Source: a virus
Lineage: Duplodnaviria > Caudoviricetes
IMG/VR virus record: IMGVR_UViG_2623620512_000004
Coordinates: 8,375-72,374 of that record
DNA length: 64,000 nt
Direction: 5' to 3' (one strand)
How positions within the stretch are numbered: position 1 is the stretch's first letter; each line of letters opens with the position of its first letter. Below are positions 22,455 to 60,206 of this stretch, piece by piece. Position numbers and translations under genes: made by a program. The notes beneath the pieces were generated by a model. It saw only the letters and a list, made by a program, of their open reading frames with translations, was not told where the DNA came from and ran no database searches.

Positions 22455-22987
22455 CGTATTTCCTCCACATCGTTTAGGGTTGCCTCACCAACGAGGAAAA
22501 GGACATCACCATCGTGGGTCTGCCAGTCGCTCATGAGCACCTTGACCTCATGCTCAATGAAATCGGCCTCTGCCTCTTCCTCAGTACATTCACTCTCTCG
22601 CCATTCCCAGTGCTTGAAATTATCCTTCAGACGGTTCTTGACAAGTTCCTCGGCACCTTTCTCCAAAGCCTGTAGGCTGTTGAAAATACCCATCAGCACC
22701 AGACTGTCATTGGAGAGGTGGCTGTCACCCTCCCAGATAAGGTACACCTTGTCTTTCTTGGCCATGTCTGCGAACTCCGATGCCAGGACATTGAAGAACA
22801 TACTCTTGACTTCTTCCTCATTGGCATCTGGGTAGTCCGTTCCGATAATCAGCTGACAGTTGCCTGCATTGTTCGACCAGTCAATCATGAAACTGTAGAA
22901 ACTCCTACCTTCCAGTTTGTCCTTGATGGCCTTGCAGTCACTCTCACACAGGTAGCCTAAATCGTTTCCTAAAAATACTTCTATCAT
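22451..22987 (-). CDS. Hypothetical acidic protein (early island)
   Basis: AAGAGCA-ATG start. Confidence 0.65.
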   Translation of the reverse strand: MIEVFLGNDLGYLCESDCKAIKDKLEGRSFYSFMIDWSNNAGNCQLIIGTDYPDANEEEVKSMFFNVLASEFADMAKKDKVYLIWEGDSHLSNDSLVLMGIFNSLQALEKGAEELVKNRLKDNFKHWEWRESECTEEEAEADFIEHEVKVLMSDWQTHDGDVLFLVGEATLNDVEEIR

Positions 22988-22999
22988 TGCTCTTACAGT

Positions 23000-23194
23000 T
23001 TAAAGTTCATCATCATCATAGTCATCTGATTCTTCCTCTATTTCCTCATCGGCTACCAGACCATCGTATATCTCATCTATTGAATCTGATGGCAGATAGT
23101 TACACACTGCGATAGCAACCTTCTCGCTACCATTCTCTGTGAGCCAGTTATATACTGCCTCTTCCTTCTCACTGTTGAAACCGTTTCTTGTCAT
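23000..23194 (-). CDS. Small acidic hypothetical protein
   Basis: AGAGCA-ATG start. Confidence 0.6.
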   Translation of the reverse strand: MTRNGFNSEKEEAVYNWLTENGSEKVAIAVCNYLPSDSIDEIYDGLVADEEIEEESDDYDDDEL

Positions 23195-23213
23195 TGCTCT
23201 ATTCTTTTAAGGG

Positions 23214-23467: not shown

Positions 23468-23773
23468 TCAGATTCGCTTTACTGAGTTAGACATTACGTA
23501 GGTCTTAACGGCCAGAGGCAAACAGGTGTCGTAACTGATGCGAGTGTTGTTCTTTATCTCCCAGACATCTGCTGCATTGCTGCCTTCCAAATCCAGAACG
23601 AGCACAAGGAATCCTGCCTGTGCCTTGTTCATCATCTCCTGCAGGGCATCCAGACAGTTCAATCCTGTGTAGGCTGATTCACGTACCTTTGTGTCTCTGT
23701 TGAACGCATAGACGCAAAACTCTCCCTTGGTCTGCTTGTAATAGTCAAGCACTTTCTTCTGACTGTAATTCAT
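23468..23773 (-). CDS. Hypothetical protein
   Basis: AAGAGCA-ATG start. Confidence 0.6.
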   Translation of the reverse strand: MNYSQKKVLDYYKQTKGEFCVYAFNRDTKVRESAYTGLNCLDALQEMMNKAQAGFLVLVLDLEGSNAADVWEIKNNTRISYDTCLPLAVKTYVMSNSVKRI

Positions 23774-23790
23774 TGCTCTTATTCTTTTGG

Positions 23791-24129
23791 TTAAAAATCA
23801 ATCTTCTCAAATCCGTAGTCATCTACGTAGTAGGCTGTTCCGTCCAGAACCACTACGTCTGATACTGAAAGACTGTGGCCAGTGTAACCTTCTGGCTTCT
23901 CTCCTTGGAACTTCATGTACAGGTATTCGAGAGTGACGATGGCTTCCTCATTCTCACCTACCTCTGTCTGTCCCTCATAGACTTTCTCATACAGGTCGCT
24001 GTCGAGTTTGCAGAGGTCACCGCTCATGGTGCAAAGGTCATTCTCCTTTACGAAGTCCAAACTTGAAAACATGATGTAACGTCCATTGGGGGCGTCATCC
24101 TTAATCTGATAAATGCTGTACGATTTCAT
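23791..24129 (-). CDS. YodL-like domain protein
   Basis: YSIYQIK...YEKVYEG...GHSLSVSDVVVL...YYVDDYGF. Confidence 0.8.
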   Translation of the reverse strand: MKSYSIYQIKDDAPNGRYIMFSSLDFVKENDLCTMSGDLCKLDSDLYEKVYEGQTEVGENEEAIVTLEYLYMKFQGEKPEGYTGHSLSVSDVVVLDGTAYYVDDYGFEKIDF

Positions 24130-24160
24130 TGCTCTTATACTTTTATATTATTATATGCGG

Positions 24161-31920: not shown

Positions 31921-32273
31921 TACTCTTCCTCCGAATACAGGTTATTCAAGAAGTTCTTCAAGTAGGTGTCATCTATCTCCGAGAGTTTCACAGGGTCAAA
32001 GTGAATGTCTCTCTCCACTCCAAGACCCCATGAGTTCTTGACAGTCTGGAGTTCTGCAAGGCTGACGTAGCCGTACTCACCTTCACCTGCAGGATTGATG
32101 GTGATACCGTAGCCTATCTTGTTTTCAAGATCCGCCTCCAGAATGTACCACGTCCAGTTGACACCGCACATGAAGAACTTCACAACACAGATTGCATCCT
32201 TCTTCTTACCATCTTGGCTGTAGAGGGGATATTCCTGCAACCGTTTCTCTACTTCTTTCGTAATCAATTTCAT
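31920..32273 (-). CDS. DUF2958-like protein
   Basis: PLYSQDG...VVKFF...WTWY..E...EYGYVSL.EL...VERD.HF. Confidence 0.75.
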   Translation of the reverse strand: MKLITKEVEKRLQEYPLYSQDGKKKDAICVVKFFMCGVNWTWYILEADLENKIGYGITINPAGEGEYGYVSLAELQTVKNSWGLGVERDIHFDPVKLSEIDDTYLKNFLNNLYSEEE

Positions 32274-32291
32274 TGCTCTTCTGTTTTAGGG

Positions 32292-32495
32292 TTACTTCTT
32301 CAATTCATATCTGCTCTTAGGATTCAATCTCTGGAGGCGAGCCAGAACATCTTCTTGTGTGTTCTCGCCATACAGAGCCTCGTACCATACTGGATGAGCG
32401 TATAACTCACCATTCTTCTTCACCGAGTAGATGTAAGCACCACGCTTCACATACTCCTTACCATTCTTTCTGTGTTTGATTTCGACTAATTTCAT
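32292..32495 (-). CDS. Hypothetical protein
   Basis: AAGAGCA-ATG start. Confidence 0.6.
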   Translation of the reverse strand: MKLVEIKHRKNGKEYVKRGAYIYSVKKNGELYAHPVWYEALYGENTQEDVLARLQRLNPKSRYELKK

Positions 32496-32514
32496 TGCTC
32501 TTATACTTTAGGGG

Positions 32515-32898
32515 TTAATTCATTCTGTTTACAACTTCCTCGACAAAATCTAACTGAGCATCGAAGTTCTTCCAGACTTTGCGATTAACATCTATCAGTT
32601 CTCTGTGACCATGCTCCAACTGAAGCATCATGTCATCAAACCAGTCACCTGTGTACTTGTAGCCATCATCCAGAACTATGACTTCCTTCTTCTTGGGCTG
32701 ATGGAGGCGCAATGTTCTCATCATCCAGTTAGCCATCTCGATATTCTGCTTCGTACCTGTAAAGATGGCGAAGATGGTAGTTCTGATACCATTGGTCGTG
32801 ATGTCATCACCTTCCTCCCAATCGAAGTGGTGCTCACGAATACCAATCAGATTCTTACTCTCATTGTAATAAACTAAAAATTTCTTTGACGTTTCCAT
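32515..32898 (-). CDS. Hypothetical protein
   Basis: First gene after the promoter at 32919-32962; AAGAGCA-ATG start. Confidence 0.6.
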   Translation of the reverse strand: METSKKFLVYYNESKNLIGIREHHFDWEEGDDITTNGIRTTIFAIFTGTKQNIEMANWMMRTLRLHQPKKKEVIVLDDGYKYTGDWFDDMMLQLEHGHRELIDVNRKVWKNFDAQLDFVEEVVNRMN

Positions 32899-32918
32899 TG
32901 CTCTTTACGTTTAATTGA

Positions 32919-33413: not shown

Positions 33414-34415
33414 TCATGCCATCTTTACGAGTTCAACCTTTTCCTTACTTACCACTTCGAGAATCATCTGCACGGCCTTGTTGACATCTGCCAGGACAGA
33501 GACGATAAACTTTGGCTCCTTGTGGAGCGCACTTATCCATGAATCCAGATAACAGGCATTGTTATCCATCAGCTTCGGGTCGAAGCCTAACACCTGACCG
33601 ATGATGGCCGCTGACAGTTCGGCAACCAGTTCTTCCTTCGCATACTCCTTGGAGGCGAAAGCGTTTCCCTTACCTCTGGCCAGTCGGCTTTCATGGCCAG
33701 TGGAGTGAGCCATTTCGTGTAGCAGGACATCATAGAATCGCATTCCGCTGAGATACTTAGCCTCATCACTGGAACTGTCATAGAACTGTGTTTTCATGGG
33801 AACGTGTATCTCATCCTTTGACGGACGGTAGAACGCTTCGTTGGACGGCTTCTGGTAGTGGATAGGGCAAAGCCACTTCTGACCAGAGAGCATATCATCT
33901 ATATCTGCATTCTCATACATTCCGAACGTGTCCGTTGGCGGTTCTGCGACTTGGAACTTCTTTTTCAGTTTCTCGATAACCTTGGGTGCTGCCTCTTCAA
34001 GGTTGGTCTGGCTGATGTTAAACACGTTGTACGACTTCAACACAGGGTAGTACGTACACTGCTTTCTCTCTTCCATTGACATGTCATCAATGTTCTCTAC
34101 CTTGGTACCATCGGCCTTCTTATAGATAAGCCTCCAGTACAGTACTGGGAATGATTCTGCACCCTTGTTGATATTGCCTCCGAGTTCCTTAATCTGGTGG
34201 AACGTGGCGAACACTGGGTACTTCCAGTCATTCATGCTTGACAGCAGGAGCAGAAGGAACGAGTTCGTGCCGTTGTACTCACTGCCTCTGAGGTTGATAG
34301 GCATATCACCGAAGGTCGTACCTATCCAACCTTTCTTCCAGTCAGATGCTTTCATCTGCTTCATTCGCTCGATAATCATATCTGCGAACTTCTCTACTAC
34401 TAATTCCGATTTCAT
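33414..34415 (-). CDS. ardC: ArdC-like antirestriction protein (ssDNA-binding domain plus zincin)
   Basis: YNGTN..LL, TFHQIKELGG.I.KG, YNVFNISQ, HEMAHSTGH..RL, YAKEELVAEL and YLDSW motifs. Confidence 0.85.
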   Translation of the reverse strand: MKSELVVEKFADMIIERMKQMKASDWKKGWIGTTFGDMPINLRGSEYNGTNSFLLLLLSSMNDWKYPVFATFHQIKELGGNINKGAESFPVLYWRLIYKKADGTKVENIDDMSMEERKQCTYYPVLKSYNVFNISQTNLEEAAPKVIEKLKKKFQVAEPPTDTFGMYENADIDDMLSGQKWLCPIHYQKPSNEAFYRPSKDEIHVPMKTQFYDSSSDEAKYLSGMRFYDVLLHEMAHSTGHESRLARGKGNAFASKEYAKEELVAELSAAIIGQVLGFDPKLMDNNACYLDSWISALHKEPKFIVSVLADVNKAVQMILEVVSKEKVELVKMA

Positions 34416-34427
34416 TGCTCTATACTT

Positions 34428-34670
34428 TTATGGTTTGTAAAAATCTGCATCTACTACGTTGGTCGGCAAGCCAAATTCTGGCACTGGCGAGAAGTACGGC
34501 TCATGCTCTGGTTCGTTAGTATGCCAATCAACTACATATCCATTGGGAAACTCTCTGATGAGGAAATTCTTAATCTCCTGCTCATCCTCATCAGAGATAC
34601 CGCTATAGTCACCATACTCGATGGCACAGATAGCGTATTCTGGTATCTTATACGTTCCTATCAGTTCCAT
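34428..34670 (-). CDS. Small acidic hypothetical protein
   Basis: IPEYAICAIEYGDYSG.SDEDE. Confidence 0.6.
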   Translation of the reverse strand: MELIGTYKIPEYAICAIEYGDYSGISDEDEQEIKNFLIREFPNGYVVDWHTNEPEHEPYFSPVPEFGLPTNVVDADFYKP

Positions 34671-34681
34671 AGACTTTCCTC

Positions 34682-34915
34682 CTACGATAAGACATACACC
34701 ATTGTCACGCCTCGCTTCTGAGCCTCTTTCTTAGCTTCCTTGACTGCATCCGAGTACATGGTGTATGGCTTGGACCAGAACACCTTGTCTGGGTCATTCT
34801 CTGCCTCCTGTCTGTTGCCGATGGCGAAAGCCCATGTGCCTTTGCCTTTGGGAGCGTGACCATGCGCCCAACGATAACCTGCAGTACTCACTTCAATCTG
34901 ATTCATTGCTACCAT
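34682..34915 (-). CDS. Hypothetical protein
   Basis: HGHAPKGKGTWAF motif. Confidence 0.6.
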   Translation of the reverse strand: MVAMNQIEVSTAGYRWAHGHAPKGKGTWAFAIGNRQEAENDPDKVFWSKPYTMYSDAVKEAKKEAQKRGVTMVYVLS

Positions 34916-34928
34916 AATCGTTTCCTCC

Positions 34929-35144
34929 TTACTTTACGCTAAAAACTAACATTCTGTAGTCATCACCACATCTGAACTGCTTCTTGCCGTTGGTAAGAAC
35001 GCAGAACTGTTTCTGACTGGCTCTTCTGTGAAGGTATGCCAGATACTCCATTGCAGCCTCGATCGTGCTGAAGGTCTTTAACACGCACTTTTCGGTTCTG
35101 ATGCCGAGGTGCTGAATCTCTTTCATTACTTTGTACGATTTCAT
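34929..35144 (-). CDS. Hypothetical protein
   Basis: First gene after the promoter; AAGAGCA-ATG-AAA-TCG start. Confidence 0.6.
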   Translation of the reverse strand: MKSYKVMKEIQHLGIRTEKCVLKTFSTIEAAMEYLAYLHRRASQKQFCVLTNGKKQFRCGDDYRMLVFSVK

Positions 35145-35173
35145 TGCTCTTATACTTTATATTGTTAATGCTG

Positions 35174-35496
35174 TTTGCTCTGGCAAAGTTACACATAAAA
35201 TTCTGAATATCAAAACGATGCAACTTTTTATTTTCTATACATTGACTAAGTTTAACTGTTGACTTTTTGCACAGAAAACACGTTTTGAGCAAAATCCTCA
35301 TGGTGGCCATAATTTCATGCGGATGGATAAGTATAAAGGGGGTTCAATTTGAAACTGGCAGGGAACTTTAGAATCAGTATTTAACATTGGGTTAACTTAA
35401 CTGGACTTTATCAATGTCAAAGGAATCTAAATTTAACGGTTGCTTAACGGAGATTTGCCCTGTGGTGGCCGTCAGTGGCCATTAACGGTTTATAAC
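35174..35496 (-). repeat. ~300-bp early promoter/upstream repeat block, copy 2
   Basis: 35-nt exact match 35239-35273 = 48902-48936; shared core at 35325-35343. Confidence 0.8.
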
Positions 35497-35498
35497 AG

Positions 35499-35570
35499 AA
35501 AAAAGTGCTCCTATTCGTCACGAACCGAAGCACTAAGAGCAATGAAATCGTCAAAAGAAACGATTTCGCT
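35499..35570 (-). ncRNA. Predicted trans-acting antisense sRNA (~70 nt)
   Basis: TAACTTTG -7 box at 35572-35579; 5' hairpin GAAAUCGU/ACGAUUUC; unpaired AUUGCUCUU; terminator stem AGUGCU...AGCACU followed by a U tract. The seed is complementary to 19 gene starts. Confidence 0.75.
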
Positions 35571-35617
35571 GCAAAGTTACAAAACTTTTTCTAATTACAA
35601 TTATTACAGCAATATAT

Positions 35618-36145
35618 TTAGCAACTTTTATGTCTCCACTTGTAGCCTCCTGCAGTTTTGTATCGTCCATTACAGCAGGCAGCAATGTTACCATGATGCA
35701 CTCCTGTCTTTCTTTCTGCATCGTTCGCAGATTCAAACTCATCAATGTATTCTCCTGTCAACGTGTAACGCACAACAGGCTTTGAATAAGCATTTGGGCG
35801 TGTACCGTAATTCATATTGTAATCTCTTGTGCACCATTCAAGATTGTCAACATGGTTATTTGTCTTGTTCTCATCTTTATGGTTCACTTCGTTTTCGTTT
35901 CCACACTTTACCAAGAATGCTTCGGCTACAAGACGATGAACAAGACAGAACTTTGCTTTTCCAGATTTTGCCAGATAAACATATTCATAGCCTATTTTGT
36001 CTATTCGCTTTTTCAAAAGACACCCTTTCTTTAATACTTCTGAATAACGGTTCTTTCTATATCTCGGCAAAGAACGTACATTGCCAAAATTACTCACTTG
36101 GTATTCATTTTCATACCCTTCTATATCTTTCCAAATCTCAATCAT
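35618..36145 (-). CDS. NUMOD4-HNH-NUMOD1 homing endonuclease
   Basis: EIWKDIEGYE..YQVSNFGNVRS, VHRLVAEAF, VNHKDENK.NN.V.NLEWC. Confidence 0.9.
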   Translation of the reverse strand: MIEIWKDIEGYENEYQVSNFGNVRSLPRYRKNRYSEVLKKGCLLKKRIDKIGYEYVYLAKSGKAKFCLVHRLVAEAFLVKCGNENEVNHKDENKTNNHVDNLEWCTRDYNMNYGTRPNAYSKPVVRYTLTGEYIDEFESANDAERKTGVHHGNIAACCNGRYKTAGGYKWRHKSC

Positions 36146-37656
36146 AACATTTCATTTAAAAGTTTTTCGTCATTACTGTAATCCCAATCGTAAGGATAGA
36201 ATGTCATCGCCAGAGCATCGAAACGGTCTGGTGAGCGTTTGAGACGTTTCTTGATTTCTTCCTTCTTTTCTATGATGATGCTGCCGTTACTGAGGAACGA
36301 CCAGTGTATGTCACAGGCCTCTTCTACCAAGAAGTCATCTGGAGGCAGGGCAGGGTTGAAGCCGTTCTTGGGGTCAAGCCACTCCCTAACAGCCCAGAAC
36401 AGGTAGGCTCGCATATTGGCAAACGAATACTGCCCTGTGAGGTCATGCAGGCCCTTTGTGCCTTCCGAGTTCTTGCATGAGTATGCGTTGTAGTAGTCCT
36501 GCTCCTGTAGCCTTGAATAGACACCTGCGCCCTCACCGATGGTATCAATGAAAGCCTTGGCCTTCTCATCCTTCAGATATTGGAGGGTCTTTCCTGCTAT
36601 CTTCATGTGGTCAGCAGAGCCGCCAGACTGGTGAACCTCTATCTTCGGCACCCATGAGCCATAACGAGGGATGAGCACAGAACAGTCACGACCCATACCT
36701 GCAACGTCCACACCAACCCTTGCGTGTTTCTTGGTGGTGTAGCCATCATCGTTGAGTTCCTTCCAACGGTTGACTGCGAGTTCCAACCATTCGTAAGGGA
36801 TAAGGATGTCCTCAGACACTTTCGGGAACATTCCGAGCACCTTGACACGGAACAGATCGTTAGGACGGTAGTAGTTACCTTCCCAATAGAAGTCACCCAT
36901 TCCTTCGTTGACCTCATCCTTGCGGATGGGTGTGCACCAGTTCTCGACCTTATCCTTGACCCATTCATAGTCAACCTGTCCGGGAATGACATTCTTTTTC
37001 TTCTTGACGTTCTCTGCGTTGAGGCTGTTTAGTCTGAACTTCTTGAAACGTGCAGACTTCATGGCCTTGGCGGCATAGCCAGTGGTGACGTTCGGGTTGA
37101 ACACCAACAACAAACGAGAGTTACCCTGCAAGTTACCTTCGATGGCGTTGTAGGTAGCCTCTGGAATACCAGATGCCTCAGTGACTATGAACATGGTGTT
37201 GACTGCATGGAAACCAGACCAAGCCTCGGTATTGTCTGCCGATGACTTAAAGCCTGTCAGATACCATTCCTCATAGTTGGTACGGATGCCGTTTGACAAC
37301 AGACGGCCAGGAAGGAACTGCGCATTACGGTAAAGACGTGACACCTCTGGAATCATAATATCCTTGACCTGTCGGCCTGTAGGTGCAGTCATGGCAATCT
37401 TCGTATTCTTGACCAGTTTACCTTCCTTGTTGAATCGTGGAGTAAGATACATGAAACAGATGGCAGCGACAGCAGCGATATAGTCTTTACCTCTGGCAGT
37501 ACCAGAGGCAACAGCAACCATCCTTTCGTTCTGGACGGCTCTGAGAATCGCTTTCTGTTCGTTGTCAAGTCGGGCATGGAGCACTTCTTTGGCAAAGAGG
37601 CACCAGTCAGCCCGCCATGCTTTCATCTTGTTCTTTCTCTTACTGTCACTATTCAT
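36142..37656 (-). CDS. terL: Terminase large subunit
   Basis: VAVASGTARGKDY (Walker A), FIVTEASG (Walker B), GVDVAGMGRD and SPDRFDAL nuclease motifs. Confidence 0.9.
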   Translation of the reverse strand: MNSDSKRKNKMKAWRADWCLFAKEVLHARLDNEQKAILRAVQNERMVAVASGTARGKDYIAAVAAICFMYLTPRFNKEGKLVKNTKIAMTAPTGRQVKDIMIPEVSRLYRNAQFLPGRLLSNGIRTNYEEWYLTGFKSSADNTEAWSGFHAVNTMFIVTEASGIPEATYNAIEGNLQGNSRLLLVFNPNVTTGYAAKAMKSARFKKFRLNSLNAENVKKKKNVIPGQVDYEWVKDKVENWCTPIRKDEVNEGMGDFYWEGNYYRPNDLFRVKVLGMFPKVSEDILIPYEWLELAVNRWKELNDDGYTTKKHARVGVDVAGMGRDCSVLIPRYGSWVPKIEVHQSGGSADHMKIAGKTLQYLKDEKAKAFIDTIGEGAGVYSRLQEQDYYNAYSCKNSEGTKGLHDLTGQYSFANMRAYLFWAVREWLDPKNGFNPALPPDDFLVEEACDIHWSFLSNGSIIIEKKEEIKKRLKRSPDRFDALAMTFYPYDWDYSNDEKLLNEML

Positions 37657-41491: not shown

Positions 41492-41964
41492 ACGGTCTTT
41501 GTCATTTCAAATCTATGCACATTGGTATTCGTAAAGGACAGCCCTACACTGTAGAATCCAAGCGAACGTGCCACTCTGAATGATGGCAGGTTGTCCGAGT
41601 TTACCCAGATATACAGCAGGTCAAGGCCGAGCACGTCAAAGCCTATTTCCATAGCCTGTATGACGGCACGTTTGCAGATGCCCTTTCCCCACATATCCTT
41701 CCTCAGAATGTAGTAGCCGATGGCGGCTGTTCCGAAGCCAATCTGCTTCAAACTGACAACTCCAACAGCTACATTGTCTGCCATAATGGCAAACATTCGG
41801 TTCCTTGCGTCCTGCCCTCTGAATATGTAGCACTGCTCTTCTGTCTGGAGCGTTGCAGGTAAGGGAGTGTCGCAACTGGTGAACTTCCAGATTTCTGGAT
41901 CGTTCCTGTACTGCCATGTATCGGCAGCGTGTCGTTTCTCTAACGGTTCAATTCTGACTTCCAT
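41461..41964 (-). CDS. GNAT (RimJ/RimL-like) acetyltransferase
   Basis: YRNDPEIW, IGYYIL.K.MWGKGI, V.SDN.PS..V...LGF. Confidence 0.85.
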   Translation of the reverse strand: MEVRIEPLEKRHAADTWQYRNDPEIWKFTSCDTPLPATLQTEEQCYIFRGQDARNRMFAIMADNVAVGVVSLKQIGFGTAAIGYYILRKDMWGKGICKRAVIQAMEIGFDVLGLDLLYIWVNSDNLPSFRVARSLGFYSVGLSFTNTNVHRFEMTKTVWNSKKNELK

Positions 41965-43548: not shown

Positions 43549-44016
43549 CTATACATAGTCTTTGATTTTGTTGATGTATTCTGGAAACTCGCTTATCGGG
43601 TATGTATCTTTGACAAGCGCATCTATCTCAGCACTGACTTTTGCTTTCTTTGCCTCGTTATCTTGGCTTTTGAATCCGAAGAGGTCATCATCCACAACAG
43701 GCATATTGAGTTGTTTCAGTTTCCTTTGTCGAGACTTTAATAGTACCTCCCTACGATAATCATGCCACTCCTTACCTAACAAGATGTCCTGTCGGCCTCC
43801 ACTCAGAAAGACTGCCCTTTTGGGGTTGCGGACTTTTACAAGAGCGGCCAGATACTCAAAATACCACGACCACCTTACTGCGAAGTCTGGTGACATTCCA
43901 GAACGGTAATAAACAACATCGTCAACATGATAGCGGTCAGTCTCAGATGTAACACTTATCTTCACGACACAGACATACTTACCAGGACCATCAATCGTTG
44001 TTTCTTTTTGTTTCAT
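43549..44016 (-). CDS. Hypothetical protein
   Basis: AAGAGCA-ATG start. Confidence 0.6.
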   Translation of the reverse strand: MKQKETTIDGPGKYVCVVKISVTSETDRYHVDDVVYYRSGMSPDFAVRWSWYFEYLAALVKVRNPKRAVFLSGGRQDILLGKEWHDYRREVLLKSRQRKLKQLNMPVVDDDLFGFKSQDNEAKKAKVSAEIDALVKDTYPISEFPEYINKIKDYV

Positions 44017-44022
44017 TGCTCT

Positions 44023-44235: not shown

Positions 44236-44509
44236 TTTGTTTCAGCTTTTCGGTTATCATATTCAATTTCTCTTGATATGCCTGCAACTGGCCGCTCAGT
44301 CGAGCAACAGCCAGTTCAGCCCTTGTTACATCTTCTTGGCTTCTGGCGAAGAAAGATGTTCCAGATTCAACCAACTTCATGCGCTTCTTCAGTGATGCGA
44401 TAACTTTCTTGAAGCCCTTGACGTTTGGCATGGCACCAGAGGCGAAAGCCTTTTCAAGTTCATCCTTGATGCTCTGGTATGAGGATTGCTTCATTTCTTC
44501 TGTAGTCAT
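44228..44509 (-). CDS. Hypothetical coiled-coil protein
   Basis: AAGAGCA-ATG start. Confidence 0.55.
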   Translation of the reverse strand: MTTEEMKQSSYQSIKDELEKAFASGAMPNVKGFKKVIASLKKRMKLVESGTSFFARSQEDVTRAELAVARLSGQLQAYQEKLNMITEKLKQNE

Positions 44510-44521
44510 TGCTCTTTTCGT

Positions 44522-44967: not shown

Positions 44968-45222
44968 TCAGTCATCAAGAGAGTAACCAAGTTCATTCAG
45001 TGCAGCGACAACTTCCTCTGGCAGTTCAAAACAGCCATCGTAGTCCTCAATCTGCTTGCCGTCAAACCAGATTCCACCTTCCATGTAGGTTTCCTCATCA
45101 TCCTCATCTTCTTGGTACTCCCAAGAACCATACTCGCCATCAATATCGAGTTTTACCCATGCACCGTTATCAAACTTGTATTCACGTGCACCATCCTTAA
45201 CGTTCTTTTCTACGATTTCCAT
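44968..45222 (-). CDS. Small, highly acidic protein
   Basis: AGAGCA-ATG start; GGIWF...DYDGCFELP.EV..AL..LG. Confidence 0.65.
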   Translation of the reverse strand: MEIVEKNVKDGAREYKFDNGAWVKLDIDGEYGSWEYQEDEDDEETYMEGGIWFDGKQIEDYDGCFELPEEVVAALNELGYSLDD

Positions 45223-45267
45223 TGCTCTATCTTTTAGATGGCAGGGTGGTTAGCCCTGCCGTTACCT

Positions 45268-45651
45268 TTACTTCTTGTTCGCTACAGTGACCAGCCAGTC
45301 TATCTCTGCTTCTGTGAGCGGATATTCCTGCTGACGCTTCCAGTTGATGATGAACAGCTTTCCAACTGCATCTTCCAGTCTGTCGTAAATCTCGGATGGG
45401 ATATGACCGTCAAAGTCATCTATCAAACCACGGACGAAGTTCTCCTTCTGCTCCTTGGCCTTCTTCTCGGTGTCCTTGACCTGCTTCTGGTAGATTTCAG
45501 CCTTCTGGTAGAAGTTACAACCTAACTCCAGACCGAAGTCATTCTTGATGTTCTCACACATCTGGTCGATGTCGTGCTCTCCGAAGAAGTCCGCAAAATA
45601 GGTATCACCTTTGAGGGACTGTAAATTCTGAATTTCTTCTGCTCGTTTCAT
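45268..45651 (-). CDS. Hypothetical protein
   Basis: First gene after the promoter at 45671-45714; AAGAGCA-ATG start. Confidence 0.65.
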   Translation of the reverse strand: MKRAEEIQNLQSLKGDTYFADFFGEHDIDQMCENIKNDFGLELGCNFYQKAEIYQKQVKDTEKKAKEQKENFVRGLIDDFDGHIPSEIYDRLEDAVGKLFIINWKRQQEYPLTEAEIDWLVTVANKK

Positions 45652-45670
45652 TGCTCTTTACTTTTAGGGG

Positions 45671-47261: not shown

Positions 47262-47866
47262 TTCTCTGCCTCCTTACGGTTGAATGGTCCTACATAGTCA
47301 GCCCAGATGGAAATGAACTGCTTGCCGAAGTAAACGGCCAGTTCCTCTGACTTGACAGCAAGGCGAGCCGAGACGCTCGAGTACGAGAACGACCAAGCGT
47401 CGTTCGAGTTCGCACAAGCGAGACCGCCATTCGCACCGTAGTACGAGCTACCGCCACCGAGCCACAGCGCACGGTCTTTCTTCCATTGCTCTGACTTGCC
47501 TTTCAGTTCCTCTTCCGTCCAGAGAGTAAACCAAGGGTACCAACGGTATTCATCAGTAGTAAACTGAGGCTCCCATCCTTCGTTGAGGGCGGCAGCGATA
47601 GTCTTTAACTTGATGTAGGCTACCTCATCTTTTTCCAAGAAGCATCGACTACCATCAATGGGTGACGAATAACGTAACTTGTAGAAATCTACAGGCTCGA
47701 AGCCGAGTACATGACAGGCATCCTCATAGGTCTTTACTCTCTCTGTGATGGGTAGCAAGGTGTCAATACCTTTAACCTTAACATCATACTTCTCTGCGAG
47801 TGCAATCATTTCTTTTGCGAACTCCTGTGCCTTTTCCTGTGGCACATCTAACTTTAACTCTTTCAT
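47258..47866 (-). CDS. DGR target 2 (remote): non-structural protein carrying VR2
   Basis: Start re-assigned to AGAGCA-ATG at 47866 (202 aa); ITERVKTYEDAC...ALNEGW.P...RWYPWF; its C-terminal region matches TR. Confidence 0.85.
   Translation of the reverse strand: MKELKLDVPQEKAQEFAKEMIALAEKYDVKVKGIDTLLPITERVKTYEDACHVLGFEPVDFYKLRYSSPIDGSRCFLEKDEVAYIKLKTIAAALNEGWEPQFTTDEYRWYPWFTLWTEEELKGKSEQWKKDRALWLGGGSSYYGANGGLACANSNDAWSFSYSSVSARLAVKSEELAVYFGKQFISIWADYVGPFNRKEAEK
47361..47468 (-). repeat. DGR variable repeat 2 (VR2)
   Basis: 108-nt ungapped match to TR with 13 mismatches, 11 of them at TR adenines. Confidence 0.9.
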
Positions 47867-47918
47867 TGCTCTATATTGGTTTAAACGTGCAGGGCGGTTA
47901 CTCCTGCGAATCCTATAA

Positions 47919-48287: not shown

Positions 48288-48567
48288 TTCTTCTGGCCTT
48301 TAGGTAAGCATCTATTGTATCAAATCCAAGCGACTGCACGTAGGCTTTACGCTTCTCAACAGTAGAGGCACACCGAGCACACACCATACAATCTGGCGTG
48401 AGTTTCTTCGGACTGCAAGGCTCATACATCTGGCTTTCGTCAATGACGATGACGCTGTGCCGTCTGCACTTGAAGGCGGCTTCATATTCAGCATCATCCT
48501 TGTTCTCGAAGGTGGGGCAGTGACATACACCGCCTAACTCATCGTTTCTTAATACATACAATTCCAT
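48280..48567 (-). CDS. Cys-rich hypothetical protein
   Basis: AGAGCA-ATG start. Confidence 0.55.
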   Translation of the reverse strand: MELYVLRNDELGGVCHCPTFENKDDAEYEAAFKCRRHSVIVIDESQMYEPCSPKKLTPDCMVCARCASTVEKRKAYVQSLGFDTIDAYLKARRND

Positions 48568-48579
48568 TGCTCTGATACT

Positions 48580-48816
48580 TTATAGTAAACTTTCTATTGT
48601 CAACGCATCAAGTTCCTTCTGGTCGAGAGTGTAGCCAACCTGTGCCATCTGGCGAACAGCTTGCTTCTTGGCATTCTTCAGCGTCTTATACATTCCGATT
48701 TGGAACCAGTACTCACCATCTTGGATGGCAGTAACAATAATCTGGTCTGTCTCATGTCCGTTGAGGCAGAACCGCACAGTCTTTCTTTCCGAGTTCGTAC
48801 ATTTAACCGATTTCAT
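48580..48816 (-). CDS. Hypothetical protein
   Basis: First gene after the promoter; AAGAGCA-ATG-AAA-TCG start. Confidence 0.6.
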   Translation of the reverse strand: MKSVKCTNSERKTVRFCLNGHETDQIIVTAIQDGEYWFQIGMYKTLKNAKKQAVRQMAQVGYTLDQKELDALTIESLL

Positions 48817-48836
48817 TGCTCTTTACGTTTAATTGA

Positions 48837-51133: not shown

Positions 51134-51960
51134 TTCTTTTCTTGCTTTACGTACTCTTCTGGTGTGCAGCCCATCTTTTCCTTGAACAGGTCTTTGAGCA
51201 TTTTCAAGTCATCTGGCTTATAGCGTTGGGTGTTATTGATGAGGGAATACGCCATAGACTTCATGTGGTCCTCTTGGTAACGTTTGTAGCCCTTGGGCTT
51301 GGTAGTTGCAGGGGTGGCAACATTTGAGCCGCTTAGAGGACTTGATTTTACTGGCAGTCCGTTCAGTCTGCAATACTCTTCATAGGTGACGGCCGTTTTC
51401 GCATATTCAGCATCAGCCTTTTCCTTTAACTTTCTGTCGTGCTCTTCATATTCATTGGCACGTTCCCTCAGAAACGTCCTCAACGATGTCGTGATAACGA
51501 TGGGGTCAACAGAGCCATAGAACCTGCCATACCTTCCAGACTTGAAGCGGTGCAGGAAAAGCATTATCTCCGTGACCTTCAGAAAGCCAAACTCGGTGCT
51601 TATCACACTGGCGCATTGCTGTAGTGCATGGCCAGATAACTTATCCCTGCAGCCGCAGTATTCTGACAGATCGTGCAGATGAGCCATGAGCCACGCAACA
51701 GGGAACTTGCCGTCAAAGTCAGTCTTTAACTGAATAAGGGTGGGGTACTCTCCGAACATACAGGCATCATCATCCAACTGCTTCTTGAACAGGTAGTCTG
51801 CATGATAGGTGTCAAGGACTTCCACGCCCTTGCTACCATATTTCTGCATCACTCCGTTTCTTAACTGAGACAGTTCAATCGTCAGAGAGGAAAGCGGAGA
51901 TTGTTCTGGCCGCATCAGCTGTTCGCTGTTCCGTTGTATTATTTCCGTTACTGATTCCAT
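51130..51960 (-). CDS. Replication-associated hypothetical protein
   Basis: LKVTEIMLFLHRFKSGRYGRFYGSVDP motif; start re-assigned to AAGAGCA-ATG at 51960. Confidence 0.65.
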   Translation of the reverse strand: MESVTEIIQRNSEQLMRPEQSPLSSLTIELSQLRNGVMQKYGSKGVEVLDTYHADYLFKKQLDDDACMFGEYPTLIQLKTDFDGKFPVAWLMAHLHDLSEYCGCRDKLSGHALQQCASVISTEFGFLKVTEIMLFLHRFKSGRYGRFYGSVDPIVITTSLRTFLRERANEYEEHDRKLKEKADAEYAKTAVTYEEYCRLNGLPVKSSPLSGSNVATPATTKPKGYKRYQEDHMKSMAYSLINNTQRYKPDDLKMLKDLFKEKMGCTPEEYVKQEKK

Positions 51961-52639
51961 TGCTCTTAGTGCTATATGATTTTTCGTTTCTGCTCCAATA
52001 CCGTATCCTCTTTTCAAGAACCCACGTCTTTTCCATTTCCCAACGCATCCTGCTACCAGACTTATTCGTCTGGCTCCACCAATCATAGAAATTACGCACC
52101 ATTTCCTTTCCATATATCTGTACGTAAGGAATGAGGGAGTTATAGAACGCTGCCATACGCTTCTTGGTGTCAGCTGCCACATCTTCCTTGGTTTTCTTTG
52201 GGCGTGTTATATTTGTTTTGTTTGATTCTTCGCCAGAAGAATCTATAATATTACCTTCTTTAGATGTGGACGTTTGTTGGTCGTTAGTTGGACTTTGGTT
52301 GGACGTTTGCTGGACGCTTTCTGGATTTACATCTTGATAACTTTCATAATTACAGATAGTTATAAGCGAAAATCGGTTGGACGCTTGGACTATAATTTCA
52401 CCTGTTTCCTGTAGTTTCTGGATGCAGGTGCGGATAACTCTTTCCGATATACCTGTCTCTGCCATAAGCCTGTTCCTTCCAGTGATAAGTTGGCCTCGCT
52501 TGATTTCCACGCCCTGCCACCGTCCATCCTTTACATTGGCATTGAGAAGCAAATGCAGAAACAGATGAACCATTTCAGATTTGCCGTACCATTCCCAATC
52601 TTGGAACCTGCGGTATATCTTTACCCAACTTTCAGACAT
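51875..52639 (-). CDS. Replication initiator protein
   Basis: WVKIYR...WEWY...HLF.HLLL.AN...IKRGQ; ITICNY..YQ; contains internal iterons. Confidence 0.8.
   Translation of the reverse strand: MSESWVKIYRRFQDWEWYGKSEMVHLFLHLLLNANVKDGRWQGVEIKRGQLITGRNRLMAETGISERVIRTCIQKLQETGEIIVQASNRFSLITICNYESYQDVNPESVQQTSNQSPTNDQQTSTSKEGNIIDSSGEESNKTNITRPKKTKEDVAADTKKRMAAFYNSLIPYVQIYGKEMVRNFYDWWSQTNKSGSRMRWEMEKTWVLEKRIRYWSRNEKSYSTKSNGISNGNNTTEQRTADAARTISAFLSDD
52267..52320. repeat. Iteron array (putative origin)
   Basis: Five TGGACGTTTG(T/C)-like units with 11-nt period inside the initiator gene. Confidence 0.7.
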
Positions 52640-53701: not shown

Positions 53702-54876
53702 TGGAACATTACATTTGTGAGTTGTTTTCCGTGTGACATAATGCACCATCTACTGGAGTTAGGTGCTTCCAGATCTATTTTCAAGTCGGCCACATTGCCG
53801 AAGCGTCTGTAGGTTCCGCACAAGTCCACTACCCAACCGTCCTTGCCTTTGAACGGACGGATGGCACGGCCTACCATCTGATAGTAGAGAGCGAGGGATT
53901 TTGTCGGACGGCCAAGGATAATCGTATCTAACTCTGGGTAGTCGAATCCAGTAGTCAGCGTACCTACGTTGGCCACGACCTTGATACTTCCTGCCTTGAA
54001 CTCTTCAAGGATTTCCTCTCGGTCTCTCTTAGGGGTCTCTCCTGTGACGATACCTGCATTGATACCTACAGACTGTAACTTGTTGACAAGGCTCTCTGCT
54101 TCCTCGATGTATCTGGTGAATACCAGGACACCGTTTCTGGGTATGCCACTCTTTGGCTTCAATACTCGGATGGTAGTCTGGGACAGCTTATCATAAAAGC
54201 CGCTTCTCTTATACTCTTCCTTCAGCGACTTGTCATCATAATCTGCACCTGTGGAGTTGGAACGTACCCTGCTCATGTCAACAGCCGTACAGTCATAGTA
54301 GTGGAGGTTTGCGAGATAGCCCTTGGCCAGAAGGTCTGAAATCTGACAGTAGTACAGGACGGATGAGAATATTCTTGGGTTCGTCCTTGTGAGGAACTTC
54401 AAGGTGCTGCCACCTCTGAATGAGCACAGTCTGTACGGTGTGGCCGTAAGACCTACCACCCTTCGCTCTGTAGCCTCGATGAACTGCTTATACTGTCCTG
54501 CCTTGGAGTTGACGTAATGGCACTCATCAATCATGACGTTCTTGAAGTGCTCGAAGTCCTCCATGTGATTCATGACGCTTCCGATGGTGGCGAAGGTGAT
54601 GCGGTTTATATCCTTCCTGCCTACCGATGCCGAATAGACTGAGGCATCCCAACAGCCGTAACTCTGCAACTTGGCGAAGTTCTGTTCCAGAATCTCCTTC
54701 TGGGGCTGTAGAATCAGAAGCGGACCATCTAACTTAGAGGCTATGTCGGCAATAACGAGGCTCTTACCTGCTCCTGTCGGCAGGATAAGCAAGCCGTTAC
54801 GTGCTCCCTTGGACTGGAAGCATCTTACAGCTGCCGTGCTTGCATCCCTCTGATAGTCTCTTAAAACGTATTTCAT
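53698..54876 (-). CDS. SF2 DEAD/DEAH-box helicase
   Basis: LRDYQ, PTGAGKS, DECH, GLTATP, LTTGFD, QMVGR..R. Confidence 0.9.
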   Translation of the reverse strand: MKYVLRDYQRDASTAAVRCFQSKGARNGLLILPTGAGKSLVIADIASKLDGPLLILQPQKEILEQNFAKLQSYGCWDASVYSASVGRKDINRITFATIGSVMNHMEDFEHFKNVMIDECHYVNSKAGQYKQFIEATERRVVGLTATPYRLCSFRGGSTLKFLTRTNPRIFSSVLYYCQISDLLAKGYLANLHYYDCTAVDMSRVRSNSTGADYDDKSLKEEYKRSGFYDKLSQTTIRVLKPKSGIPRNGVLVFTRYIEEAESLVNKLQSVGINAGIVTGETPKRDREEILEEFKAGSIKVVANVGTLTTGFDYPELDTIILGRPTKSLALYYQMVGRAIRPFKGKDGWVVDLCGTYRRFGNVADLKIDLEAPNSSRWCIMSHGKQLTNVMFQ

Positions 54877-54933
54877 TGCTCTTAGTGCTTAAAGGGTAGA
54901 GAGGTCGAAGCCTCCCTACCTGTTGTCATTGTC

Positions 54934-57966: not shown

Positions 57967-58727
57967 ACTAATGCGAATACTTTCTTGTCTGTTATCAAAC
58001 TCTTATTATCCTGCAGGAATCTGATGAAGTCCTCACAGTGCTGCGTCAGCCTCGGAATGTCACGCTCTGGGACGTATGAGTAACTTTCCGTATAGGTCTG
58101 GTAGGAGTTGTTCTTTCCTAACTCGACCACGTTGTACTCGAAGTCCGGCACGTTGCATCCGTTCTGGTATAACGCATAGGGGTACACAAGGTGTTGCCAG
58201 TGGTTCTTGTAGTTTCCGACTGAGTAACTGCCTGTGGTTTTCAAGTCATGGGTGCAGAAGGGCAGCACGTAGTCGATGTAGCCGTACAGAAGGACATTGC
58301 CGTAGATGGTAGGCAACACGGCCTCAACAAACTGCTGTGCCAGTGCTCCCTTGTAGTAGTTAGCCACCTCTCGGCAAAGAGTGATGGAAAAGAAGAACGT
58401 CCGTTCGTTGTAGGTAACGTTCAGACCGACAACCTTTCCTTCATCATTCTTGATTTTCTGTACCTTAATCTTGTCTGAGTTCTCGCCCTTGACCATGCAG
58501 TCGATGACTTCATTGAATGCCGTTCCTCGGTCTGCCTTCTCGTTGTCGAAGGGGACACGGTTAATCTTATCAATCAACGCCTGGAACTGCGCCTCCCTAA
58601 ATTCCTCTGGAGAGTGGGGAGGGTTCTCGGAGAACGCCCAATAACGTTCCCAGATAATGTCGCTATCAATGAAATTCTGATATGCGTCAAGTAGTGTTGC
58701 GTAGAATTTAAACTGAATCTCTTTCAT
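57963..58727 (-). CDS. PD-(D/E)XK/Cas4-like exonuclease
   Basis: GTAFNE..D, YGYIDY...DLKTT...WQH.VYPY. Confidence 0.7.
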   Translation of the reverse strand: MKEIQFKFYATLLDAYQNFIDSDIIWERYWAFSENPPHSPEEFREAQFQALIDKINRVPFDNEKADRGTAFNEVIDCMVKGENSDKIKVQKIKNDEGKVVGLNVTYNERTFFFSITLCREVANYYKGALAQQFVEAVLPTIYGNVLLYGYIDYVLPFCTHDLKTTGSYSVGNYKNHWQHLVYPYALYQNGCNVPDFEYNVVELGKNNSYQTYTESYSYVPERDIPRLTQHCEDFIRFLQDNKSLITDKKVFALV

Positions 58728-59239: not shown

Positions 59240-60173
59240 CCTCGTACTTCTTGGTTTCCTTGTTGTACTTGACCTTCAGATTCTTCATCTTGGCAGAGAA
59301 CAGGTCTCTTGCATACAGGATGACGGAGTTTCCAAGATTCTTGTAGTCATTGATATGCTCGATGAAGTGGTTCGCTCCCTGTGCATCGGTAATCAACTCC
59401 ACTGCCTCCTTAATCTCGGCCAGAGCCTTGTTGTACTCGGCCTGCGCATTCTCCTTGACCTGTATCATGTTCTGGTACTTGTCAATGATACGCTTCTGGA
59501 TGAAGTCGTTCGGGGCTGTCGGCTGTCCGTTCTGGTCGAGGATATTGTTTATCCACATGACACCGTCCAACTGGCAGGTGTTCTTGCCATCGTTGCGACT
59601 GGTGGGGTCGAAGGTGATGGAACGCTTCTGCACTCCATTCTCGTTCTTCATTTCCAGATAGCCCAGAAGGTCAAGTTCCGTGACGATGGCGTTGTACGAC
59701 TTCTCACGGAGGGCAGGAACGAATACGGTATCATCACCTTCCTTACGTGTGTCACGGTGGGCAACGAAGATGAGGTGCTTGCCGAGTTCTGACAGGGCGT
59801 TGACAAACCACTTGAAGTCAGAGTTAATCATTCCCCAATCCTGTACTCTGGGGTTACGGCCTCCACATCGGTAGGCGATAATGAAGTCCATCATCTTGCC
59901 GATGGTGTCAACCACGATGGTCTCGAACGGTGCCAGATCTGCTTTCTCCGTAGTCAGAAGGGTTACAACCTCCTGCCAGTTGGTAATCTGGACGATGCCG
60001 ACCTCTCCGAGGTGAGAGTTATTCACACGCTTGACACCGTTATCGAAGTCAAGCAACAGCGGTTTCGGAGCCGACAGTGCGAGGGTGGTCTTACCCATAC
60101 CTGCCTGTCCGTAAACCATCATCTTCACATTACGCTGAATAGCGATTTCGTTACTTTTCTTAATCAATCCCAT
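59229..60173 (-). CDS. Sak4-like AAA recombinase/annealase
   Basis: YGQAGMGKTT, LLLDFDNG, TIVVDT, FVAH. Confidence 0.8.
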   Translation of the reverse strand: MGLIKKSNEIAIQRNVKMMVYGQAGMGKTTLALSAPKPLLLDFDNGVKRVNNSHLGEVGIVQITNWQEVVTLLTTEKADLAPFETIVVDTIGKMMDFIIAYRCGGRNPRVQDWGMINSDFKWFVNALSELGKHLIFVAHRDTRKEGDDTVFVPALREKSYNAIVTELDLLGYLEMKNENGVQKRSITFDPTSRNDGKNTCQLDGVMWINNILDQNGQPTAPNDFIQKRIIDKYQNMIQVKENAQAEYNKALAEIKEAVELITDAQGANHFIEHINDYKNLGNSVILYARDLFSAKMKNLKVKYNKETKKYEDAA

Positions 60174-60206
60174 TGCTCTTAGTGCTTTAAATTGTTGAAC
60201 ATAAAA

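Follow-up and report, generated by a model that had tools for sequence, protein, structure and literature searches.

A predicted small RNA gene of a Bacteroidota prophage with a seed complementary to a start-codon motif of 19 phage genes

The stretch of DNA analysed here (64,000 nucleotides (nt), referred to as the window, whose positions serve as coordinates throughout) is part of a provirus record of 72,374 bases in IMG/VR (IMGVR_UViG_2623620512_000004), and its - strand carries nearly every gene. On this strand, positions 35499-35579 are predicted to form a stand-alone gene for a small RNA (sRNA) of about 69 nt. An earlier note on the window had read a promoter box, a hairpin, a linker and a terminator at this place, a layout that both the sequence and the computed fold confirm. 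The -7 promoter box (35579-35572) is separated by CAGC from the 69-nt stretch 35567-35499, which RNAfold arranges into a 5' hairpin, an open linker and an intrinsic terminator (-26.9 kcal/mol, z = -4.64; none of 200 shuffled sequences folded as well). The linker, to which we refer as the seed, lies internally, at positions 25-33 of 69, and has a mean unpaired probability of 0.96 versus 0.31 for the remaining RNA. Bacteroides promoters have the consensus TTTG at -33 and TAnnTTTG at -7, and TTTG is found 18-21 nt upstream of the -7 box in several relatives of the phage.

The seed is complementary to a motif that includes a start codon. The 9-mer AGAGCAATG occurs 23 times on the - strand of the window and once on the + strand (35536), where chance would give about 0.24 copies per strand (64000/4^9). 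Nineteen of the 23 copies start open reading frames (ORFs) of 64-392 codons, typically in the order of the preceding gene's stop codon, about 8-12 A-rich bases, AAGAGCAATG, and then AAA or GAA; the other copies lie in the interior of a gene (47486), within the first codons of a 70-codon ORF (44216), 8 nt 5' of the ATG at 41964 (41972) and between two genes (29091). These targets are dispersed across 37 kb, and the motif stands at the start of no ORF called structural, packaging or terminase, save for the near-start copies 41972 and 29091. A PHROG search named three of the 19 target genes, namely a Sak4-like annealase, a DNA helicase and an ArdC-like anti-restriction protein; three further ones match families of unknown function or, weakly, a tail protein, and 13 have no PHROG family. 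The predicted duplexes of the seed region amount to -15 to -35 kcal/mol at motif starts, compared with -5 to -14 kcal/mol at most other starts. Some motif-bearing starts match the core alone, some carry AUGAAAUCG and some match over 16 nt. The 19 coordinates that the earlier note had given as motif-bearing gene starts were all recovered as ORF starts, and its further claims of a single copy in the opposite orientation and of extended flank matches, with ATGAAATCG at 24129, 34415, 35144 and 48816 and AGCACTAAGAGCAATG at 51960, 54876 and 60173, were borne out; its statement that no head, tail or terminase gene is tagged holds for true starts, the two near-start copies excepted. An intrinsic terminator (hairpin plus U run) in the window and its relatives, a conserved single-stranded seed and a complementarity of at least 9-10 nt to 19 starts, reaching 16-18 nt at some, are what one would look for in a trans-encoded base-pairing sRNA.

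With the terminase large subunit (TerL) as the anchor for collecting related loci, a search of IMG/VR returned 318 relatives, from which 80 loci were kept; many of these are near-identical and related, so that counts over them do not represent independent events. CATTGCTCT follows the terminase gene by 40-90 nt on the gene strand in 68 of the 80 loci. At the same place, L074 has the one-base variant TATTGCTCT, L015 and L018 hold a decayed remnant (and one motif each), and nine loci have no element. The prophages from GTDB genomes that carry the post-terminase element belong to a Bacteroidaceae metagenome-assembled genome (MAG), four Prevotella (Prevotella vespertina A2879 and Prevotella sp. 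KH2C16 among the hosts), Paraprevotella, Candidatus Gallipaludibacter and Parabacteroides faecalis AGMB00274, and diverged forms exist in L102 (a Prevotella) and L094 (a Bacteroidales MAG). A covariance model built from the window element and one relative made exactly one strong match, behind the terminase gene, in 39 of 41 sources; it missed the diverged elements of L102 and L094, which were recognised by eye. The same model confirmed 53 of 80 further loci listed from a pattern scan of IMG/VR, a scan that ran near chance expectation and from which only model-confirmed loci were counted. A scan of positions 34000-37000 against Rfam (cmscan, E <= 1) gave nothing at the locus and a sub-threshold Chlorobi-1 match elsewhere.

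Conservation within the element is uneven. In a plain alignment (A1), the invariant columns are the -7 box, TT-ATTGCTCTT and the GTGA of the terminator loop; ATTGCTC is unchanged across 36 distinct sequences, and 37 of the 39 alignment rows contain ATTGCTCTT. The 5' hairpin, or the 5' seed of the type-B RNAs introduced below, starts 4-5 nt after the -7 box (34 distinct sequences listed), and all 33 distinct sequences fold as hairpin, open seed and terminator. The MAFFT alignments A1-A3 were structurally inconsistent (RNAalifold on A1 returned eight terminator pairs only), and pairs were therefore counted on the covariance-model alignment. Here, standard pairs fill 97.2% of 724 cells, as compared with 71.3% in shuffles and 37-47% with slid partners, and 197 cells show changes on both sides where 52.9 were expected. 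Such both-sided changes affect 18 of 21 base pairs, with 7/9 in helices 1 and 2 (the 5' hairpin, alignment A6) and 11/12 in helices 3 and 4 (the terminator). The margin over the controls is large, and the stem types are visibly distinct by eye. On these comparative grounds, the covariation shows the predicted RNA gene to be a real and conserved one. The outcome that the earlier note had named as refuting its reading, namely relatives that keep the start motif without the hairpin-linker-terminator arrangement, was not borne out, given the spread of the element over the loci and the covarying hairpins around a fixed linker.

The seed and the start motif go together. The 86 loci with a seed-bearing, terminator-followed element have a mean of 4.5 start motifs, versus 0.39 in the 18 without one, and among these 18, L088 is a miss of the detector since the covariance model finds its element. 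Relatives whose TerL identity is 66% or less have neither motif nor RNA. In host genomes, 20 of 25 copies of AAGAGCAATG (G003), 14 of 26 (G002) and 11 of 26 (G001) fall inside the prophage region. In each of the three, the gene strand carries almost all of these prophage copies, one or two being inverted. A change in the seed is seen in L102, whose RNA has CATTGCTTT (seed CAUUGCUUUU) and whose commonest start 9-mer is AAAGCAATG (four copies, three of them at real starts), with no AGAGCAATG on its gene strand. As a U in the seed pairs with G or A, a change of this type would be tolerable in a system of many targets. In the host genome of L102 (G004, Prevotella, 2.9 Mb), ARAGCAATG has 110 copies versus 22 for the reversed control; this Prevotella thus favours part of the motif as a start context beyond the prophage as well.

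Six relatives (Table 1) carry RNAs of a form that we call type B, which begin with a single-stranded 5' GUUUCUUAU.. complementary to the first bases of the leaders of their targets (..ATAAGAAAC, just 3' of a TACCTTTAC promoter box). This second seed shows a compensating difference between L009 (ATATAAGAAAC / GTTTCTTATAT) and L102 (GTAAATAAGAAAC, five copies / GTTTCTTATTTAC), and in L010 the match comprises only 9 nt. In the RNA, the two seeds stand in reverse order compared with what the simple inversion of a leader would give, and this points to selection for pairing and not to an origin by inversion. Besides, complementarity extends from the motif into the stems: targets match the stem of their own phage over a mean of 3.99 nt on the coding side and 2.00 nt upstream, versus 2.84 and 1.60 nt for the stems of other types. 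For the two largest stem types, the codons most often found at positions 2-3 of the targets complement the stem arm exactly (AAATCG in 6/70 targets, AAAACA in 10/48), and the upstream flank co-varies in three groups (3/33, 9/48 and 10/31 targets), all of these flank counts coming from related, partly redundant loci and from the 10 kb on either side of the terminase gene. The co-variation of seed and start motif that the earlier note had proposed to look for finds some support in L102 and in the second seed of type B, and that of the flanks appears in some groups and not in others, with small samples throughout. Two further contacts were considered and rejected. Pairing of the motif with 16S ribosomal RNA, which the sRNA would mimic, found no shared 7-mer in the 16S loci of two hosts, the best duplex being -11 to -13 kcal/mol. 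A contact of the hairpin loop of the window type with its targets was too weak, AAGAAAC lying within 45 nt of 3/19 motif starts against 0.35 expected.

The same seed recurs in two other kinds of RNA-like element. One family has its own promoter box, followed by a 5' hairpin (loop of GUGAAG or AUGAAG type), CATTGCTC and a terminator; it is present in all nine IMG/VR loci, and in L091, that have no terminase-linked element, 5-9 kb downstream; seven of these nine IMG/VR loci carry the motif, and in L046 and L057 it is not among the commonest start 9-mers. The window itself has no member of this family. The other, a third hairpin-seed-terminator type, ends an operon in some relatives (e.g. L012:13107), where the first gene of the operon so closed carries the start motif; judged from its position, it could provide feedback from the 3' end. 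The seed is all that the RNA-like families have in common.

Around the element, the terminase gene is the conserved upstream neighbour, and in the window a gene for an HNH homing endonuclease, which overlaps the terminase stop codon by 4 nt, intervenes between the two. Since L005, with a TerL 98% identical, has no HNH gene and its RNA element directly after the terminase gene, the HNH gene is an insertion peculiar to the window. The sequence 5' of the -7 box has been replaced by this insertion. The + strand ORF starting from the ATG at 35542, which the earlier note had named as a possible gene that would make the inverted motif just another gene start, spans 201 codons in the window, a length that it owes to an antisense run through the inserted HNH gene; in relatives it is short (3-62 codons) and unconserved and therefore not a gene. 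We likewise discarded a 235-codon ORF antisense to HNH (35440-36147, +) for its odd composition and lack of conservation. Among INPHARED phages, a DNA query matched the HNH gene only, and the closest TerL had 31% identity. The roughly 200 nt that follow the RNA downstream (35300-35495, -) are non-coding and hold repeated GTTAA / GTTAAAT units, and 'aaaagttaaat'-like units follow the RNA in many relatives as well.

The window has two classes of phage promoters. Five targets are the first gene behind near-identical class A promoters (TTTTGATATTCAGAA...TAACTTTGCCAG), and class B promoters (TTTGTTATTCAAAT...) head the packaging and structural blocks, whose genes are motif-free. Both classes share TTTG..ATTCA.A..TAnnTTTG and have class-specific spacers; the part of the spacer common to both could be the site of a regulator, and no repressor was identified in the window. 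The promoter of the RNA gene does not have this conserved spacer. Two class A leaders (45711-45681 and 35214-35184) begin with CCAGAGCAAAC, placing a partial second copy of the motif (AGAGCAA) at the 5' end of the mRNA, and the remaining three have CCAGTGCAAA. Strong GGAGG Shine-Dalgarno-like sequences, which are unusual for Bacteroidota, lie 6-9 nt before the ATG at 34915, 34670, 31920, 22454 and 18751 (-); with such starts beside the motif starts, two or more types of start region seem to be in use in the phage.

Table 1. Features of the sRNA locus, target starts and promoters in the window, and seed-bearing elements of related loci (positions in the latter are given with the locus).
Feature	Position	Strand	Remarks
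-7 promoter box TAACTTTG of the RNA gene	35572..35579	-	TA..TTTG invariant in 28 aligned relatives, flanks variable
Weak -33-like element ATTG	35598..35601	-	18 nt 5' of the -7 box; read from sequence
5' hairpin GAAAUCGUU/UCUUUU/GACGAUUUC	35544..35567	-	9 bp; RNAfold
Exposed 9-nt seed AUUGCUCUU	35535..35543	-	with preceding C = CAUUGCUCUU; complement of AAGAGCAAUG; fold, conservation
Intrinsic terminator	35499..35534	-	31-nt hairpin, loop with GUGA, then U run ending at 35499; RNAfold
Terminase large subunit gene	36142..37656	-	conserved upstream neighbour; tblastn matches annotated terminase large subunit
HNH homing endonuclease gene	35618..36145	-	between terminase and RNA genes; PHROG HNH endonuclease, E = 1.3e-43
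Target start, Sak4-like gene	60171..60179	-	16-nt match AGCACUAAGAGCAAUG; duplex -34.2 kcal/mol
Target start, DNA helicase gene	54874..54882	-	16-nt match; duplex -35.4 kcal/mol
Target start, 276-aa gene	51958..51966	-	function unassigned; 16-nt match; duplex -34.6 kcal/mol
Target start, 78-aa gene	48814..48822	-	3' of class A promoter (48877-48847)
Target start, 95-aa gene	48565..48573	-	
Target start, 202-aa gene	47864..47872	-	phrog_11581
Target start, 127-aa gene	45649..45657	-	3' of class A promoter (45711-45681)
Target start, 84-aa gene	45220..45228	-	
Target start, 93-aa gene	44507..44515	-	
Target start, 155-aa gene	44014..44022	-	
Target start, 71-aa gene	35142..35150	-	3' of class A promoter (35214-35184); duplex -29.9 kcal/mol; first gene downstream of the RNA
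Target start, ArdC-like anti-restriction gene	34413..34421	-	PHROG anti-restriction protein, E = 1.2e-56
Target start, 127-aa gene	32896..32904	-	3' of class A promoter (32959-32929)
Target start, 67-aa gene	32493..32501	-	
Target start, 117-aa gene	32271..32279	-	
Target start, 112-aa gene	24127..24135	-	3' of class A promoter (24201-24171)
Target start, 101-aa gene	23771..23779	-	
Target start, 64-aa gene	23192..23200	-	
Target start, 178-aa gene	22985..22993	-	
Class A promoters	48877, 45711, 35214, 32959, 24201	-	5' of motif-bearing genes
Class B promoters	52808, 43092, 30606, 22037, 9790	-	5' of packaging and structural blocks
Type-B RNAs	L009:11552, L010:11553, L012:11537, L013:4288, L040:9502, L102:11545		
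Second RNA-like family	L021:16890-17010, L014:19820-19945, L060:18720-18845, L046:18645-18790		
Third seed-bearing type	L012:13070-13170, L009:13195-13300		directly 3' of the operon's stop codon

From these observations, we consider it probable, yet by no means settled, that the element is both a stand-alone sRNA gene and the source of a trans-acting translational repressor of a phage regulon. A host-type RNA polymerase would start 4-5 nt past the -7 box, and the 5' hairpin and the terminator hairpin would hold the invariant CAUUGCUCUU single-stranded between them, ready to pair with AAGAGCAAUG around the start codons of the 19 genes. The regulon would thereby include the Sak4-like annealase, the helicase, the ArdC-like protein, many small proteins and the first genes behind the five look-alike promoters. 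At some targets, the duplex might grow upstream or into codons 2-3 by opening one stem of the RNA; the 3' arm of the 5' hairpin, for one, can prolong pairing into codons 2-3 (AUG-AAA-UCG). With 10-18 bp of duplex lying over the AUG, the 30S subunit should be excluded, so that one RNA might lower translation of the whole set, and the set so repressed would be almost wholly phage-internal.

As for when this may happen, the RNA could damp leaky or incoming early genes in the lysogen, and its promoter, which has no phage-class spacer, may be active when the class A and B promoters are shut. On the other hand, its place at the 3' end of the terminase gene, whose stop codon provides the first three bases of the -7 box in several relatives, means that the RNA would also accumulate late and could then end early-gene translation. 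We lean slightly towards a role in both situations. Sequence comparison shows the anatomy and conservation of the gene, the covariation of its stems, a fixed and exposed seed, the complementarity, the joint occurrence of motif and RNA, and some co-variation of seed and targets; production of the RNA, repression in preference to activation, and the timing are inferred. In metatranscriptomes, contigs from two runs (X1 and X2) cover all of 34000-37000 evenly, giving neither strand nor ends; in a further run (X4), a 174-nt contig (depth 2.3), likewise with strand and ends not given, spans the element together with about 60 nt upstream and about 30 nt downstream, and the contigs of run X6 do not cover it.

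Several points weigh against this interpretation. Transcription of the element as a gene, and repression as opposed to another outcome of pairing, are both presumed. At -33, the window has no more than ATTG. Joint variation of the core seed and its targets is confined to L102, where clear target starts number only three, and this case of co-variation is weakened by how common AAAGCAATG is in the host genome. In the flanks, the groups AGTTTT (34 targets) and ACGATT (27) have no preference for the perfect complement, and upstream extension is absent from TAGTGTG (0/35), TGCCAGT (0/16) and TAGTGCA (0/26). The loci behind the counts are not independent, many being near-identical or related, and the alignment used for counting pairs was fitted to the model's structure, which favours that structure.

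Complementarity, rather than an effect, is what the data show, and the RNA might therefore pair with the start motif to another end, be it protection of the mRNA, processing (with a double-strand RNase cutting duplexes of 16-22 bp) or activation. Such an outcome is unlikely, albeit worth keeping in mind: three genes of the replication module stand out from the other targets by far longer matches (-34 to -35 kcal/mol), and an RNA with the same seed that ends a target operon in relatives would fit feedback of either sign. However, the duplex would hide the AUG itself, reaching from about -9 to at least +3, which makes an activating effect on initiation difficult to conceive, and cleavage of the duplexes would remain a kind of shut-off. 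We give a little less credence again to the idea that the main job of the conserved RNA lies elsewhere, i.e. with host mRNAs, a protein partner or the termination or stabilisation of the terminase transcript, and that its complementarity to the motif is secondary. Its place directly at the 3' end of the terminase gene, the conserved GUGA of the terminator loop, which pairing leaves unexplained, and the 5-15 copies of the 10-mer AAGAGCAATG outside the prophage in each host genome would suit this idea. Yet the only part of the RNA that never changes is that complementary to the motif, whose copies cluster in the prophage; gains and losses of the motif accompany those of the RNA, and two more RNA-like families in relatives share nothing with the RNA save this seed.

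Stoperators of cluster A mycobacteriophages are DNA sites oriented with transcription, and the repeated 9-10-mer might by analogy be a DNA site for a phage DNA-binding protein, the inverted copy being one more site. The motif sites are indeed asymmetric, intergenic and nearly all in the same orientation. We nevertheless regard this explanation as quite improbable, given that a DNA site predicts neither the surroundings of the inverted copy (promoter box, U run and a pair of covarying hairpins) nor target flanks complementary to the stems or a second complementary seed, and that the motif site contains the ATG itself. Stoperators are mentioned as a contrast by Pope et al. (PMC3203893). Least credible is a + strand gene starting at the inverted copy (ATG 35542), or a functionless relic there of an inverted or recombined gene start, for the 201 codons that speak for the gene in the window stem from the inserted HNH gene and shrink without conservation in relatives, and a relic would not keep an invariant core, compensatory stems and a promoter box across several host families.

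Returning to the preferred reading of the element as a repressor RNA, we tentatively put forward a wider proposal, which we think has a real chance of being true but would not bet on: some temperate phages may tag a fifth of their genes at the start codon, and one sRNA, or a few paralogues with the same seed, may silence all of them, in their own genome as well as in incoming relatives, with the seed frozen as a consequence; the same logic may explain the Start-Associated Sequences (SAS) of cluster K mycobacteriophages. If so, about 20 targets would freeze the seed much as in Shine-Dalgarno pairing, and every change in it would have to go by way of U, able to pair with both G and A; L102 appears to be such a case. 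A resident RNA that silences incoming relatives would amount to a group-wide immunity in abundant gut and rumen prophages. Either way, one phage RNA matched to about 20 start codons is a sequence-defined, widely conserved and easily testable case, and would be a natural switch in which one RNA governs many genes. Bacteroidota mostly lack Shine-Dalgarno-led initiation and Hfq; to our knowledge, control by sRNAs is little explored in this phylum and almost unexplored in its phages. The literature that we searched, which did not extend to the supplementary sRNA lists of Bacteroides papers, held no description of the RNA or the motif, and neither 'Bacteroid' nor 'regulon' occurs in a review from 2025 on sRNAs derived from phages (PMC12197685).

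A parallel outside the Bacteroidota is offered by the SAS, a 13-bp sequence (GGGATAGGAGCCC) at 13-19 gene starts plus one inverted copy away from any start, whose function is stated as unknown in the papers describing it (PMC3203893, PMC11373665, PMC12699233). Judging from these sources, both are short asymmetric motifs at the starts of non-structural genes of often unrelated families, absent from the host and nearly always in one orientation. The SAS, however, has a Shine-Dalgarno core and lies 3-9 nt before the start, whereas AAGAGCAATG includes the ATG and has no GGAG core, so the window motif is no SAS and the likeness is one of logic only. Within the available texts, 'antisense' and 'small RNA' do not appear in PMC12699233, nor 'noncoding' in PMC11373665. 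In the right part of the genome of the cluster K phage Adephagia, we counted 16 forward copies of the SAS and one inverted copy, the latter in the 430-nt gap between gp92 and gp93 (L122:33640-33720; record 58640-58720). Here, on the gene strand, a hairpin of about 19 bp (z = -3.8) carries CCUCCUAUCC as its 10-nt apical loop. Conservation of the region extends to 137 records; Validus, Amelie and Ekdilam retain the loop together with a compensating stem, and Keshu does not. This suggests that the Adephagia hairpin may be an anti-start RNA that follows the same logic as the Bacteroidota phage RNA, a concrete hypothesis for the unexplained mycobacteriophage sequences; were start codons tagged as we propose, a puzzle of 15 years may be solved.

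Phage-wide shut-off of many early mRNAs at their translation initiation regions has a precedent in RegA and RegB of phage T4, with RegA sites that include the AUG and RegB cutting GGAG in ribosome-binding sites (PMC3014915). These are proteins with a loose A+U-rich or 4-nt recognition, while we propose an RNA with an exact 10-nt match, which would be an RNA counterpart of RegA/RegB. Among phage RNAs, the CI RNA of P4 is an immunity RNA that pairs in trans with transcripts of its own phage; c4 and P4 CI target two sites within a single operon and vary from one heteroimmune phage to another. The c4 RNA of P1/P7 resembles the RNA described here in being a phage sRNA whose exposed complementary stretches pair in trans with its own transcripts and hold back lytic functions (review PMC12197685). 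The present RNA differs from c4 and CI in its roughly 20 sites across the genome and in the one seed kept throughout a whole phage group, and neither the Rfam scan of the locus nor the spread of targets over 37 kb places it among the C4/P4-type RNAs.

The FopS RNAs of Bacteroides block translation initiation by pairing beside the start codon, as shown with compensatory mutations (PMC11697453). FopS/GibS of Bacteroides thetaiotaomicron share with the phage RNA the phylum and a length of about 65-70 nt and, as predicted for the latter, a canonical host promoter and a seed pairing near the start codons of several mRNAs, but are chromosomal and multicopy, with a seed at the 5' end and susC-type host targets (PMC11697453). 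The phage RNA is set apart from them, by its description, through a seed that lies between two hairpins rather than at the 5' end (R1/R1'), targets that are nearly all phage genes and a fixed site containing the AUG. FopS/GibS is the nearest known system in mechanism and phylum, and P1 c4 the nearest phage analogue. The mechanism as such is ordinary; what is new is the genome-wide tag at start codons, the seed frozen in several RNA families and the setting in Bacteroidota prophages.

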